From contig JAJOJK010000002.1 of assembly GCA_021208605.1 (NCBI GenBank), positions 37,606 through 101,605 on the forward strand: a stretch of DNA of 64,000 nt, in the 5' to 3' direction. Origin of the DNA: Candidatus Woesebacteria bacterium. Lineage in GTDB: Bacteria; Patescibacteriota; Microgenomatia; UBA1400; UBA1396. Below, one piece after another: positions 50,466 through 59,123 of the stretch (position 1 is the first letter of the stretch; every line of letters begins with the position of its first letter). Below the pieces are notes generated by a model. It was not told where the DNA came from, did not search any database, and saw only the letters and a list, made by a program, of their open reading frames with translations. A program made the translations under genes and the position numbers.

Positions 50466-51440
50466 CTATTTAAATATTCGTAAATATGCCTTTTTATATA
50501 TATCAAAACGCCAGAGCCACGGCACTTGAAGATACGTATTCACGAACAAAAGAGCGGCTAAAACATTTACTGGCATTGCCATCAAGCTTTTCAAAAGATA
50601 GATTCTGCTTGCCCTAAATTCGCGTGCTTGCGCTTTAAAAATACCTGTTTGTAAATATATACTAGAAATAATAGTTCTGTACCTCCACGCTGGAATGAGA
50701 AATTTTCTGCCATAGATTCGATAATTCTTTTGAATGACCGCTATTCTCTCTAAATACGCCTTTGTTTTGTCTCTGTTGTGGAGGTTTTTATCATGCATTC
50801 TCCACGAAGCTAAGACTTCATTGATATAAGCAAACTGTGTATGTGCGGCACACCGCATAAAAAAGTCGTAATCATTACTGATACTGTAATTCGCATCAAA
50901 ATCACCAACGAGATCATACAGGGACCGGCGAAATGTCACCGAAATAGCCGAGACAAACATACCCTTTAAAAGCAACTCTTTAAAAATCCAACCTTTTTGA
51001 GGACCTATTGGGTTCTCAGCAAAACGTGATTCTGAAATAATATTTCCATCTTTATCAATCCGAGCCGCATCCGTATACACCACGCCCACTTCTGGGTTGG
51101 AATCGAGCACCTGTACCATTTTTTCAAGGGCCGTCTCATGCCAGAGATCATCTGAACCAATGTGAGAAATATACGTTCCTTTTGCGTGCTGCATGGCGTA
51201 GGAGATAGCAAACGCTATCCCTTTATTCTGTGACAAGGGTAGAAATCGAACTTTTGCGTACTTCTTTTTTTTCAGTAGCTGCTCAATATACTGCGGCGTT
51301 TCGTCGGTGGAACCGTCATCAACCAAAATGATCTCAAAATCTTGGTACGTTTGCGCTACTAATGAATCGAGAGTCTCTTGGAGGAACTCTGTTCTATTAT
51401 AAGTCGCTAAGGTAATGGAAACAGTTGGAGCGCTCATCAC
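50466..51440 (-). CDS. Family-2 glycosyltransferase
   Basis: VSITLATYNR, ILVDDGSTDET, SDDLW. Confidence 0.75.
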   Translation of the reverse strand: MMSAPTVSITLATYNRTEFLQETLDSLVAQTYQDFEIILVDDGSTDETPQYIEQLLKKKKYAKVRFLPLSQNKGIAFAISYAMQHAKGTYISHIGSDDLWHETALEKMVQVLDSNPEVGVVYTDAARIDKDGNIISESRFAENPIGPQKGWIFKELLLKGMFVSAISVTFRRSLYDLVGDFDANYSISNDYDFFMRCAAHTQFAYINEVLASWRMHDKNLHNRDKTKAYLERIAVIQKNYRIYGRKFLIPAWRYRTIISSIYLQTGIFKAQAREFRASRIYLLKSLMAMPVNVLAALLFVNTYLQVPWLWRFDIYKKAYLRIFK

Positions 51441-52561
51441 TTCTCGTTTTCAAAGGACTGTATTAACTCAATAACATACGCAATCTGCTCATCTGTCATC
51501 CCTGGGTAAATAGGCAAACTGAGGATTCTAGCTGTATACTTTTGTGCAACCGGAAACTCTTCTGGGGAGTGATTCATGTACGAAAAACACTGCTGCATGT
51601 GTAATGGTATTGGATAGTGAATAAGCGTATCAACCCCGTTCTCCTGCAAATAGGCCTGTAACTCATCGCGCTCCGGGTGCTGAATTACATAGAGGTGATA
51701 CACACTTTCAATTTCATCTGGAATACTGAGACGATATTCTCCTAAAGCTACGTCATATTTTTGGGCAATGTACTTTCTTTGTTGATTCCAGCTGTCTAAG
51801 TGCGGGAGTTTTGTACGCAAAAATGCAGCCTGAAGCTCATCAAGTCGAGAATTTTTTCCTAGCATTTCATGGTGATACTTTTTCTTTTGTCCGTAGTTAT
51901 GCAGAAGCTTGGCTTGTTCATAAAGTTCAGGATCATTGGTAACAATGGCTCCTGCATCACCATAGGCTCCGAGGTTTTTACCCGGATAGAAACTAAATGC
52001 AGCCATGTTTCCAAACGTTCCTGCCTTTTTCCCTGAATATGTTGCACCATGTGCCTGGCAAGCATCCTCCAGGATCTGAATACCGTGTTTTTCGGCCAGC
52101 TGCATAAGCTGGTCCATTGGAACCATAGAGCCATACAAATGAACCGGTAAGATAACTTTTGTATTGTTGTTTATGGCAGCGGCAACAGCATTCACGTCCA
52201 TTTGCAAAGTTGCCTCATCCACATCAACAAAAACGGGTGTTCCCCCTGCTTCGATTACTGCCAATGCAGTAGCCACAAAAGTATGTGTTGGCAAAATGAC
52301 TTCGTCATTTTCACCAACTCCCATGGCTTTCAGAGCTAAGATGAGTGCATCTGTGCCACTTCCCACACCAACACAGTACTTACTGCCAATATAAGCAGCA
52401 AATTCTTTCTCGAACTCGTCGACTTCATTTCCTAAAATAAAGTGTTGAGCAGCAAAAACACGATCAAAATCATCCTGCAGCTCTGCTTTCACTTCTTGAT
52501 ATTGGGGCGAAAGATCGACGAAAGGTACCTTCATAGTTCCTTTTCTAAAATTTGTAAACAA
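51437..52561 (-). CDS. DegT/DnrJ/EryC1-family PLP-dependent sugar aminotransferase
   Basis: GVGSGTDAL, and FSFYPGKNLGAYGDAG with the PLP Lys. Confidence 0.8.
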   Translation of the reverse strand: MFTNFRKGTMKVPFVDLSPQYQEVKAELQDDFDRVFAAQHFILGNEVDEFEKEFAAYIGSKYCVGVGSGTDALILALKAMGVGENDEVILPTHTFVATALAVIEAGGTPVFVDVDEATLQMDVNAVAAAINNNTKVILPVHLYGSMVPMDQLMQLAEKHGIQILEDACQAHGATYSGKKAGTFGNMAAFSFYPGKNLGAYGDAGAIVTNDPELYEQAKLLHNYGQKKKYHHEMLGKNSRLDELQAAFLRTKLPHLDSWNQQRKYIAQKYDVALGEYRLSIPDEIESVYHLYVIQHPERDELQAYLQENGVDTLIHYPIPLHMQQCFSYMNHSPEEFPVAQKYTARILSLPIYPGMTDEQIAYVIELIQSFENEK

Positions 52562-57071: not shown

Positions 57072-57847
57072 CTACTTTTTCACCACAAGGAGATAGTTTA
57101 GTGGGAAAAGCGACTCATTTTTCGTCATCCTATCCAGCTGCAAAAGCACCCAGTATAGCGGGTATAAAAGTGGTACAAGAAGTTTCCCAATTACAGGGAT
57201 TCCGTATAAGGGTGAAATCACCGTAGCAAATACATATCCCAAAAAGGCAAAAAAGCCACCTATAGGAGTAATTTCCAAAACCGTGAAACCTGCATCCTCG
57301 GCTAGCATTTGCAGACCGTACCTGGTATAGCGGTAAAAGTCATAGGGAGCATTGTGAATATACCCTAACATTGGGACAGTAATAATAGCCGTCCCGGATG
57401 GCTTTAAGACTCGATATATTTCTCCCATTGCGTGCCATGGATGCGGCACATGTTCCAACACTTGCGAACAAAAAACAACATCAAACTTCTTTGACTTAAA
57501 AGACATTTTTCGATATCGGTCACTACATCCAAATCTTTGTGTACTTTTTGGAAATCAGAACTTGTATACGTATCTCCATGCTCTTGTAATAACGACCGAT
57601 AGGCCAATTTCCCTGCTCCGGCATCAAGAAAATCACCACCATCAGTATACTTTTCTAGAGCATACTCAGTTGAGTTCAGTAAAGATATACCAGCAGGCGA
57701 ACGCATCCAATAGGCACGGGTACCAGCATACTGTTTTGCTACTTTTTTATTTAATTCTTTAAGTATTTTTTTGAGGCTCATAACTTCCTTCTTCCTTCGT
57801 GACCAGACTCTCAGTATATAAATACTTCCCCGAAGCACTCGGGGCAA
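57072..57847 (-). CDS. Class-I SAM-dependent methyltransferase split by a 1-nt deletion in an A5 run (ORFs 57404..57847 and 57072..57506)
   Basis: Motif I FLDAGAGKLAY lies in the upstream ORF and FDVVFCSQVLEHVPHP in the downstream ORF. Adding one A at about 57502 (GAAAAA) restores ...DIEKMSFKSKKFDVVF. Confidence 0.7.
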
Positions 57848-59123
57848 TTTCGTCTACAAACTCAAATACCACCCGACTGTCACTTCCCATGACGGTTCTA
57901 ATATCAGCGGTCATTTGAGCTTGCTCTTCTGGGTTTGGTTTGCCATTCAGAACCACTAAGCAGCGCACCAAGTCGAGCTCTTCTTGTATCACTTTAAACC
58001 GTTTCACCCAAGATTTGAAGTAAAAGACATGCGTAAAGTACTCACCGTGCACAACCGTGCCGTCGGCTCGCACAAAGTGATTGGTAATACGCCCGGTCAC
58101 CTGAGAGAGCTTTGGAGTCGTATTCTGCGTTACTTTGTACTTGTTCTCAGCAAGCCATTCAGCTGTGTCACCAATGTGGTATCGAATCAGAGGCATGGAG
58201 TAGTTTTCGAGAGTGGTGACGAGTATTTCTCCACTCTCAGTAATCTCTAAGAAATGAGTCCAAGGAAATGTATTTAAGCCATTCTGTGTTTTGTCCTCGG
58301 CAGCCATATCACCCACTTCTCGCGATCCGTATTGGTTGTAGACTTTGGTGTTTAAAACGGACTCTACATAGGTACGCACTTCTTCAGTCAGCACACCCGC
58401 TGTGGTAATCACAGATGCCGGTGGGTGTTCTAAGACGAGCGAATTGGCTTCCATAAAACGGGCAAGCTGATAAATACTATCCACATACACCCAAATATGC
58501 TGAGGTCGAAATGTATCAATCTCAGCAACATATGCCCGCATATCGTCTTCCGTCATTAAGAAAGCATTGAGCAGTCGACGGTTATACAAAAAATTCATAA
58601 GTTGCTCTTTGAGGCCGATGGAGCCCTGCAAAATATCTCGCTCGGATCCCCAGAGCTTCACTTCTCTTTGACCGACCTGTTTTCCCACAAGTCCGGCATA
58701 GTACAACTTGTTGGCAATATTCCAGTCTTTATAACGCGAATCTTGCAAAAACACTACCGGCTCACCTGTCGACCCACCTGATGTGTTCTCAAAACTCCCT
58801 CTGCTCTTATGATCAATAGCGTGTAAATTTTCACCAAGAGAGCGTAGTTTCTCTTTGGTCATAATAGGAACTTTTTTGAACGCAGCAAGATCGACAGTGC
58901 CATTTTTTTTAATGACCCCACACCGCCTTAACTCAGCGTGGTAGTACGGAACCTTTTTAGAGGCGTGCAGAAGAAGTTGCTGGAGTTTCTGCTCCTGGAG
59001 TTCTTTCAGTGTGTCGGCCGAATAGTGGTGATACTGCCAAATTTTCCGTAAATTCCACGGAATGTGACTCCCTGTCACAGCGAGTAAGCCAAAAATAAGT
59101 GGTCGCCGCCAATTTCCTACCAT
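57759..59123 (-). CDS. CapK/PaaK-like adenylate-forming ligase (phenylacetate-CoA-ligase / F390-synthetase family)
   Basis: P-loop-like TSGGSTGEPVVF. 454 aa. Confidence 0.55.
   Translation of the reverse strand: MVGNWRRPLIFGLLAVTGSHIPWNLRKIWQYHHYSADTLKELQEQKLQQLLLHASKKVPYYHAELRRCGVIKKNGTVDLAAFKKVPIMTKEKLRSLGENLHAIDHKSRGSFENTSGGSTGEPVVFLQDSRYKDWNIANKLYYAGLVGKQVGQREVKLWGSERDILQGSIGLKEQLMNFLYNRRLLNAFLMTEDDMRAYVAEIDTFRPQHIWVYVDSIYQLARFMEANSLVLEHPPASVITTAGVLTEEVRTYVESVLNTKVYNQYGSREVGDMAAEDKTQNGLNTFPWTHFLEITESGEILVTTLENYSMPLIRYHIGDTAEWLAENKYKVTQNTTPKLSQVTGRITNHFVRADGTVVHGEYFTHVFYFKSWVKRFKVIQEELDLVRCLVVLNGKPNPEEQAQMTADIRTVMGSDSRVVFEFVDEIAPSASGKYLYTESLVTKEEGSYEPQKNT

Follow-up and report, generated by a model that had tools for sequence, protein, structure and literature searches.

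Putative N-acylation genes in place of the acetyltransferase of a Qdt/Fdt-type amino-sugar cassette in a Candidatus Woesebacteria bacterium

A stretch of 64,000 nucleotides from a Candidatus Woesebacteria bacterium (assembly GCA_021208605.1, contig JAJOJK010000002.1, positions 37,606 to 101,605 of the forward strand), called the window throughout, carries a glycan operon on its minus strand. Judging from its genes, the cassette within this operon would work like the Qdt/Fdt pathways for 3-acetamido-3,6-dideoxyhexoses but without the acetyltransferase that defines them. Between a cupin of ketoisomerase type and a DegT-family aminotransferase, the slot of the acetyltransferase is occupied by an ATP-grasp ligase, an extended short-chain dehydrogenase/reductase (SDR) and a class-III aminotransferase. 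This trio substitutes the acetyltransferase of the Qdt/Fdt cassette, and the swap recurs in unrelated bacteria and archaea. The operon product is probably an unusual acyl-decorated cell-surface sugar. The genes had been picked out in a first-pass annotation of the same DNA, the observation of which was confirmed and the interpretation of which was partly supported. Its opinion that the combination had not been described before was supported, as no account of such a variant was found in the full-text literature searches.

The operon comprises 11 genes (49522-60256) that overlap or lie at most 15 nucleotides apart. It consists of the eight consecutive minus-strand genes noted earlier, all of which were recovered in place, with a family 4 glycosyltransferase (GT4) gene upstream and genes for a family 2 glycosyltransferase (GT2) and an LPG_synthase_TM protein downstream. 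The family assignments made for the eight genes were upheld by a Pfam and NCBIfam check, subject to these corrections: the methyltransferase gene is broken in two in the window, the cupin is very divergent and two starts were revised, that of the ATP-grasp gene most likely being 55725 (334 amino acids) instead of 55788 and that of the DegT gene most likely 52534 (365 amino acids). A scan for promoters and terminators across the operon gave matches at chance level only. In order of transcription, the genes are the following.

59117..60256, minus strand: GT4 glycosyltransferase, operon gene 1, the stop of which overlaps the start of the CapK-like gene (Glyco_trans_1_4, 85 bits; Glycos_transf_1, 77 bits)
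57759..59123, minus strand: CapK/PaaK-like adenylate-forming enzyme of 454 amino acids (precomputed Pfam assignment CapK_C; NCBIfam matches below cut-off)
57072..57781, minus strand: S-adenosylmethionine-dependent methyltransferase (Methyltransf_11/23) with a hydrophobic C-terminal tail, a variable accessory gene
56153..57070, minus strand: PGA_cap-like calcineurin-fold metalloenzyme of 305 amino acids (Pfam PGA_cap, 46 bits)
55715..56137, minus strand: divergent FdtA/WxcM-type cupin, putative nucleoside diphosphate (NDP)-4-keto-6-deoxyhexose 3,4-ketoisomerase (FdtA, 41 bits; Polysacc_synt_C, 44 bits)
54721..55725, minus strand: ATP-grasp ligase, PRK12767/2pn1-like, of 334 amino acids (ATP-grasp_3, ATPgrasp_Ter and PylC-like_N, 50-69 bits)
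53792..54724, minus strand: extended SDR of NADP(H) type (Pfam Epimerase, 132 bits)
52531..53811, minus strand: class-III (omega-type) aminotransferase dependent on pyridoxal 5′-phosphate (PLP) (Aminotran_3, 283 bits)
51437..52534, minus strand: QdtB/DesV-type sugar C3 aminotransferase of the DegT family (DegT_DnrJ_EryC1, 415 bits)
50466..51440, minus strand: GT2 glycosyltransferase, TuaG/EpsE-like (Glycos_transf_2, 117 bits)
49522..50463, minus strand: LPG_synthase_TM (MprF-flippase-like) membrane protein, last operon gene (Pfam, 124 bits)

The Qdt pathway of Thermoanaerobacterium thermosaccharolyticum (QdtA/QdtB/QdtC) and the Fdt pathway of Aneurinibacillus thermoaerophilus (FdtA/FdtB/FdtC) yield dTDP-3-acetamido-3,6-dideoxy-glucose/-galactose. 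They require RmlA and RmlB for the precursor, a ketoisomerase cupin with a His-x-His motif, a PLP-dependent C3 aminotransferase of QdtB/FdtB type and the left-handed beta-helix (LbH) N-acetyltransferase QdtC/FdtC. Such an aminotransferase is encoded by the DegT gene of the window. Its PDB matches were led by 7b0d (3e-117), QdtB 3frk (2e-115) and DesV 2oga (3e-105), WlaRG-type and WbpE enzymes were matched as well, and the SF..PGKN lysine motif is retained. The cupin is likewise present, though divergent. It scored 41.4 bits on the Pfam model FdtA (cut-off 23) and matched the WxcM-like structure 4zu4, FdtA 2pa7 and QdtA 4zu7 in the PDB with E-values of 5e-5 to 7e-4. Its RGEHYHK aligns to RGFHAHK, so that RGxHxH (R49, G50, H52, H54) is shared with canonical FdtAs; the two histidines presumably correspond to the FdtA catalytic pair.

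The context of the cupin was followed in a metagenome scan, which yielded 21 further loci with the same cupin subfamily. Where sufficient flank was available, the usual order was cupin, hexapeptide transferase and QdtB-like DegT, which is the classical QdtA-QdtC-QdtB layout, the DegT being about 49% identical to that of the window. The role of the cupin subfamily was settled from this gene context. An ATP-grasp match within 9 kb was found in none of the 21 loci. The first-pass pairing of cupin and DegT as candidate enzymes for a 3-amino-3,6-dideoxyhexose-type sugar is supported by the QdtB/DesV-like DegT, the retained RGxHxH motif and the cupin-LbH-DegT context of the subfamily. As in the Qdt/Fdt loci, cupin and DegT are followed by a glycosyltransferase gene. 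The GT2 stands after DegT in almost every related cassette, its position being kept in loci L005, L008, L010, L012, L013 and L115, and it is presumed to be the transferase for the modified sugar.

The absence of an LbH acetyltransferase, remarked on earlier, held for the whole window. No hexapeptide/LbH gene was matched by tblastn anywhere in the 64 kb, and the hexapeptide, GNAT and formyl-transferase families were missing among 51 window open reading frames (ORFs) scanned with Pfam, that is, all non-shadow ORFs of at least 150 amino acids except 28751-29335 (194 amino acids). Similarly, the RmlA, RmlC, RmlD, HAD, hexapeptide and GFO proteins of related loci gave no tblastn match in the window. 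LbH genes are present in sister loci, that of L005 being QdtC-like, and comparison of these loci places an ATP-dependent ligase in the LbH slot of the window.

Locus L005, from a distant relative within the Candidate Phyla Radiation (CPR) with a PGA_cap-like protein 34% identical to that of the window, reads Wzx, CapK, PGA_cap-like, cupin, LbH, DegT and GT2. Its cupin, DegT and GT2 are 57%, 55% and 45% identical to their window counterparts, and its LbH protein is closest to QdtC 3fs8 (7.6e-33). In the slot of this LbH gene, between cupin and DegT, the ATP-grasp, SDR and class-III aminotransferase genes are found in the window, in L006/L007 (a species-level relative) and in L008/L091 (a third lineage). 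Five lineages share the order ATP-grasp, SDR, class-III aminotransferase: window/L006, L008/L091, L115, L116 and L009. In L115 the trio occurs with a canonical FdtA, Wzy and a MurJ/Wzx-type flippase; in L116 with a divergent cupin and O- and C-methyltransferases; and in L009 a GFO/IDH/MocA dehydrogenase and DegT stand in place of cupin and DegT. The SDR and the class-III aminotransferase are a fixed trio with the ATP-grasp enzyme, which the first-pass annotation had missed. The genome-neighbourhood comparison that it had called for bore out the replacement at the LbH slot by the ATP-grasp gene and divided its single block into two modules, an amino-sugar cassette of cupin, ATP-grasp, SDR, class-III aminotransferase, DegT and GT2 genes and a unit built on the GT4, CapK-like and PGA_cap-like genes.

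ATP-grasp relatives at least 34% identical and with usable flank have a QdtB-like DegT within about 3.5 kb, 45-53% identical to the window DegT. The exception is L116, in which the only DegT-family gene is found 6.5 kb downstream, truncated where the contig ends and not typeable. Next to remoter ATP-grasp relatives (about 30%), the DegT genes are only about 30% identical; we take these relatives to belong to other amino-sugar pathways. In a second version of the cassette, FdtA, ATP-grasp and DegT are kept, the SDR and aminotransferase are replaced by a phosphoglycolate-phosphatase-like protein of the haloacid dehalogenase (HAD) family, and a methyltransferase is present in two of three loci. 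This version was found in Methanocaldococcus bathoardescens (CP009149.1; positions 7568-12520 of locus L010: FdtA, ATP-grasp, methyltransferase, HAD, DegT and GT2, adjoined by RmlA/B/C/D-type genes), in a metagenome-assembled genome (MAG) of Spirochaetes (L012; ATP-grasp, HAD and methyltransferase) and in a Bathyarchaeia MAG (L013; ATP-grasp and HAD, no methyltransferase). The LbH gene is missing in seven of the eight cassettes.

The ATP-grasp protein scored 62.8 bits on ATP-grasp_3 (cut-off 23.2) and up to 182 bits on PRK12767-type models. It has the superfamily fold with its Lys, Glu/Asn and Arg residues for nucleotide and Mg binding; columns K121, K156, N270 and R272 are invariant in 21 relatives and the EINPRF motif is conserved. 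The family is large, with more than 556 genome matches. The best PDB sequence match was 2pn1 (1.3e-20), a structural-genomics entry, which was also the nearest fold neighbour of an AlphaFold2 (AF2) model (predicted local distance difference test score, pLDDT, 90), followed by the L-amino-acid ligases RizA and BL00235 and by PylC. Fold and motifs are shared with these proteins, whereas identity to RizA, BL00235 and PylC is 15-21% and those enzymes join free amino acids. Since the fold neighbours include amide-forming RizA, BL00235 and PylC, they support a predicted role in N-acylation.

In the SDR, the T122/Y146/K150 triad and an Arg-Lys pair, R37-K38, that follows strand beta-2 are shared without exception by six orthologues. 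Arg-Lys at this position marks NADP(H) enzymes under the usual reading of Rossmann folds, and the pair points to an NADP(H) preference and a reductase-type role. The class-III aminotransferase has an Aminotran_3 domain with the PLP-lysine and the motifs DECQTG and LAKA. Dialkylglycine decarboxylase was its best PDB match (6e-61), omega-transaminases and racemases with this fold came next, and ArgD- and LysJ-like NCBIfam matches stayed under cut-off; by these matches it is classed as a generic omega-type enzyme. In short, the window resembles the Qdt/Fdt systems in the His-x-His motif of its cupin, its QdtB-like aminotransferase and its gene order, and differs from them in having ATP-grasp, NADP-type SDR and class-III aminotransferase genes in the LbH slot and no RmlA/RmlB nearby.

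With moderate confidence, we propose that an NDP-3-amino-3,6-dideoxyhexose of Qdt/Fdt type is N-acylated by the ATP-grasp enzyme with a non-acetyl acid, after which the acyl chain is tailored. An NDP-4-keto-6-deoxyhexose, made by genes outside the window, would be converted to the 3-keto sugar by the FdtA-like cupin and aminated at C3 by the QdtB-like DegT enzyme. The 3-amino group would then be amide-linked to a carboxylic acid by the ATP-grasp enzyme via an acyl-phosphate, with no acetyl-CoA-dependent LbH step. The SDR and the omega-type aminotransferase may convert carbonyl, hydroxyl or amino groups of the attached acyl chain into one another or, less likely, prepare the acid before ligation. 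The finished sugar would be placed on a lipid-linked glycan by the GT2 and then exported. In one concrete scenario, a hydroxy-acyl product could result from both versions of the cassette. With the trio, ligation of an amino acid would be followed by deamination and reduction; with the HAD protein, a phospho-hydroxy acid would be ligated and lose its phosphate, and in loci with a methyltransferase it would then be methylated. The proposal builds on observed gene content, family membership, conserved catalytic motifs, the positional replacement of the LbH gene and the recurrence of the modules; from these we infer which substrates are used, that N-acylation occurs, which acid is attached and in what order the steps run.

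In the Escherichia coli O114 antigen, serine is carried on 3-amino-3,6-dideoxyglucose (Qui3N). In full-text literature, nothing was found that pairs ATP-grasp with ketoisomerase, Qui3N, 'O-antigen gene cluster' or DegT/glycan amide, or CapK with adenylate-forming. For E. coli O antigens, amino acids in amide linkage are well documented (PMC7685785), among them N-acetyl-L-serine in O114. ATP-grasp enzymes go unmentioned in that review ('grasp' does not occur), and in the pertinent passages of papers on E. coli and Proteus O antigens no enzyme is given for the attachment of such amino acids.

Several findings weigh against this N-acylation pathway. Canonical FdtAs share only about 20% identity with the cupin and, used as queries, gave no tblastn match in the window; the cupin also scores equally on a model of CapF/WbcJ-type cupins (Polysacc_synt_C, 44 bits). 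Among the HAD-version loci, only L013 also has a hexapeptide transferase; because both genes occur there, LbH and ATP-grasp are not strictly exclusive. PurK and biotin carboxylases, which activate bicarbonate, are as close in fold to the ATP-grasp model as the amino-acid ligases, so that ligase and carboxylase neighbours were not separated by the fold search, and no biochemically characterised member of the ATP-grasp subfamily was found. We know of no class-III aminotransferase that acts on nucleotide sugars, and the roles given above to this enzyme and the SDR are guesses. Finally, neither a sugar nucleotidyltransferase nor a 4,6-dehydratase was found in the 64 kb, which is why the NDP-4-keto-6-deoxyhexose precursor had to be assumed. 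Both window SDRs lack the Asp-Glu pair of RmlB, the operon SDR reading TSTIDIYG and the other (44118-45068) ASSSSVYG, which is of epimerase type. RmlA/RmlB-type genes may lie elsewhere in the genome.

In an alternative that we consider unlikely, the ATP-grasp enzyme would activate a carboxylate of the glycan or a sugar, e.g. a uronic acid, and couple an amine to it, the 3-amino sugar being merely a neighbour in the same glycan. The amine would be supplied by the class-III aminotransferase (with the SDR), or a phosphorylated amine would later be dephosphorylated by the HAD protein of the second version. An amide ligase (the C-domain of Cj1438), an aminotransferase leading to serinol phosphate (Cj1437) and a HAD phosphatase (Cj1435) cooperate in this way in the HS:2 capsule of Campylobacter jejuni (PMC11800397). 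The likeness lies in enzyme type: an ATP-dependent amide-forming enzyme is found in a glycan locus with the same accessory types, the aminotransferase in one version and the HAD protein in the other. In HS:2, a small phospho-amine is joined to a glucuronic acid carboxylate on the polymer, whereas in the N-acylation proposed here the sugar supplies the amine. There is no UDP-glucose dehydrogenase or other uronic-acid gene in the operon or the related cassettes, and the sugar made by the Fdt/Qdt route, a 6-deoxy one, offers no carboxylate. Amidation of this kind also leaves unexplained why LbH is lost in seven of eight cassettes and why ATP-grasp sits in the LbH slot, and the ATP-grasp gene tracks the C3 aminotransferase even where a GFO/IDH/MocA dehydrogenase replaces the cupin.

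Slightly less probable is tailoring of the sugar ring, in which the SDR and the class-III aminotransferase would introduce or shift a second keto or amino group, giving a diamino or epimerised sugar. The ATP-grasp enzyme would form a carbamate from bicarbonate, as PurK does, or prime a carboxylate for reduction in the manner of LysX/LysY/LysJ. This would agree with the extended, nucleotide-sugar type of the SDR, with PurK and biotin carboxylase among the closest ATP-grasp folds and with the aminotransferase matches to ArgD- and LysJ-type models. To our knowledge, however, sugar-ring transaminations are the work of the DegT family, and a DegT enzyme is already present. The Arg-Lys NADP-type motif of the SDR is typical of reductases and not of NAD-dependent oxidases, and the genes are accompanied by neither a kinase nor an acyl-phosphate reductase of Lys/Arg type.

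In the interpretation given by the first-pass annotation, the ATP-grasp, CapK-like and CapA-like (here PGA_cap-like) proteins would together attach an amino acid to the amino sugar and perhaps oligomerise it, methylation following. Co-transcription of the genes in the window and in close relatives speaks for this, and the ATP-grasp enzyme was rightly placed among the substitutes for the acetyltransferase. The same does not hold for the other two: CapK and the PGA_cap-like gene also occur with a QdtC-like acetyltransferase in L005 and without any amino-sugar gene in L117, and CapK stands alone beside GT4 and Wzx genes in other loci. Oligomerisation had rested on the CapA name; no CapB or CapC partner was found, the protein lacks a membrane anchor and its nearest solved relative is the epimerase MslH. 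The methyltransferase is dispensable, being absent from two sister loci (L005 and L091), so that it no longer counts as part of the N-acylation chemistry. As a whole, this interpretation is very improbable.

Because they occur both with a QdtC-like acetyltransferase (L005) and without amino-sugar genes (L117), CapK and the PGA_cap-like gene were treated as a separate unit. They do not substitute for the acetyltransferase, and the amino-sugar cassette lies inserted on their downstream side. L117 reads GT2, GT4, CapK, PGA_cap-like, GT4, methyltransferase, LPG_synthase_TM and Wzx, with CapK and PGA_cap-like at 6216-8467, and has no cupin, DegT or ATP-grasp. Four lineages carry the PGA_cap-like gene, and in each of them it follows CapK; in the window and L006 the methyltransferase alone intervenes. 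CapK is immediately preceded by GT4 in L117, in L092 GT4 stands two genes ahead of it, and LPG_synthase_TM is also the last gene in related loci L006, L008 and L117. An association of the PGA_cap-like gene with the cupin, to which it is adjacent in three lineages, was considered and rejected, as L117 has CapK and PGA_cap-like without a cupin. No PGA_cap-like match lay within 9 kb in any of the 21 metagenome cupin loci, several of which are too short to judge. The GT4, CapK-like, PGA_cap-like and methyltransferase genes constitute an independent, CPR-specific decoration unit, the chemistry of which may combine carboxylate adenylation with metal-dependent acid/base chemistry.

The CapK-like enzyme was not matched in the local Pfam copy. 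With NCBIfam, it scored 84 bits on DVU1553_fam_AMP (cut-off 300) and 52-59 bits on PaaK models, all under cut-off, and its PDB match was PaaK 4r1l (4e-13). Homology to PaaK phenylacetate-CoA ligase and coenzyme F390 synthetase is weak but consistent; unlike these enzymes, it falls far under the curated cut-offs and belongs to a large CapK_C family found in glycan loci beside GT4 and Wzx. No characterised member of the CapK_C family was found. There are more than 4000 relatives; among the matches listed, those outside near-identical Woesebacteria show 42-58% identity and are spread over many groups of bacteria and archaea. In other CPR loci, the relatives have GT4 and Wzx genes beside them and no amino-sugar genes.

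The PGA_cap-like protein contains the PGA_cap domain (46 bits, cut-off 27) that it shares with the poly-gamma-glutamate synthetase CapA/PgsA. In contrast to the latter, it begins at the catalytic GD motif with no N-terminal membrane anchor, and neither CapB (Mur-ligase-like) nor CapC was found among the scanned window ORFs. Only five representatives were found at E ≤ 1e-10 among the 1.84 billion searched. Residues D8, E36, N83, H84, D87, H182 and H218 are invariant in the family and H220 is nearly so. An AF2 model (pLDDT 89.6) gave MslH 8gq9/8ith as best PDB matches, and the family profile matched MslH at 1.3e-28. MslH is a Ca-dependent lasso-peptide C-terminal epimerase of calcineurin fold (PMC10406935); enzymes of its type have one metal site, formed by Glu, Asn, His and His, and two His/Asp dyads. 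Its Ca ligands (E36, N83, H218 and H220 here), His88/Asp91 dyad (H84/D87) and Asp11 (D8) have counterparts in the PGA_cap-like protein. Unlike MslH, this protein lacks about 130 residues and a conserved counterpart of His295 (H248 occurs only in the closest relatives), is about 14% identical, has no peptide substrate in sight and is partnered by a CapK-like adenylating enzyme. On these comparisons, it may be either a hydrolase or an epimerase.

In the window, the methyltransferase consists of two overlapping ORFs (57404-57847 and 57072-57506). At about position 57511 the window has five A residues, compared with six in four other assemblies of the same population (L001-L004), and the six-A version encodes an intact protein of 236 amino acids; the gene is intact in L001, L002, L004, L006 and L007. 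Since these four assemblies have the additional A and only homopolymer indels separate the assemblies, the gene was treated as intact. The split is assembly noise, one A being missing from a homopolymer. The possibility that the block is decaying or non-functional, suggested by the split gene, has next to no credibility: besides the intact methyltransferase elsewhere and the nature of the assembly differences, the other genes are full-length, with 76-93% protein identity in the second species-level relative. A long hydrophobic stretch (about residues 165-225) is seen at the C-terminal end of the methyltransferase, for which reason the protein is predicted to be membrane-anchored, which is probable. 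The best NCBIfam match of the methyltransferase, a weak one, is DVU_1556, and that of the CapK-like enzyme is DVU_1553; the two are neighbouring families of one Desulfovibrio gene group.

Homopolymer-length indels are the only differences between the window and the four other assemblies (at 57511 in the window, and at 56843, 57749 and 50967 in other assemblies), and a different gene is broken in each case: the window has a broken methyltransferase gene, L001 (the NCBI assembly) a broken PGA_cap-like gene and L003 a broken GT2 gene. Assembly GCA_021209405.1, also from Candidatus Woesebacteria, is 99.98% identical to the window. The gene of a RecD/UvrD-like helicase is likewise divided between two ORFs that overlap, 17423-18070 and 18067-18654, perhaps through a further homopolymer error.

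The window is a chromosomal stretch, with ATP synthase, SecA, aminoacyl-tRNA synthetases and enolase encoded outside the glycan region. From a TIG-domain gene to the CapK-like gene (46409-59123), the GC content of the genes is 0.38-0.45, as against 0.51-0.54 in flanking genes, and this island resembles a variable or horizontally exchanged glycan-specificity region. Genes at 45388-49551 converge on the operon and encode an ArnC-like polyprenyl-phosphate GT2 (150 bits on the ArnC model, under its cut-off), the TIG-domain protein and a polytopic membrane protein of 848 amino acids. The latter was considered as a GT-C enzyme, by the position of a PMT_2 protein in L005, and rejected, as there was no BLASTP similarity and no Pfam or NCBIfam match. 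A second glycan group on the minus strand (34920-39901) comprises a Wzy_C ligase/polymerase, three GT2 genes and a Wzx flippase, and beside it lies a gene for a protein with a weak kinase-domain match. A protein of 796 amino acids (61399-63789) has no Pfam or NCBIfam match and a counterpart in L001 with a faint YfhO match only.

The locus and its relatives present a standard Qdt/Fdt cassette rewired through the exchange of one step, and define a recurrent gene set of cupin, ATP-grasp, SDR, class-III aminotransferase and DegT. Amino sugars that bear amino or hydroxy acids as acyl groups are found in many surface glycans of bacteria and archaea, and the O-antigen literature, in the passages concerned, names no enzymes for this acylation. 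We tentatively suggest, as a possibility, that the trio and HAD versions represent widespread, unrecognised enzymology that places non-acetyl N-acyl groups (hydroxy-acyl or amino-acyl, e.g. glyceroyl, seryl or lactoyl) on nucleotide-activated 3-amino sugars and is common to CPR bacteria, Spirochaetes, Bathyarchaeia and Methanocaldococcus, and that, separately, CapK and the MslH-like protein form a new glycan adenylation/epimerisation unit. This second, unexplained pair is set apart from the amino-sugar genes and is specific to the little-known cell envelopes of CPR bacteria. M. bathoardescens, which carries one of the related cassettes, is a cultured archaeon and would make the sugar product tractable to find. 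If the suggestion is true, the enzymology of the two versions would supply the missing enzymes for the amide-linked acids of many surface glycans.

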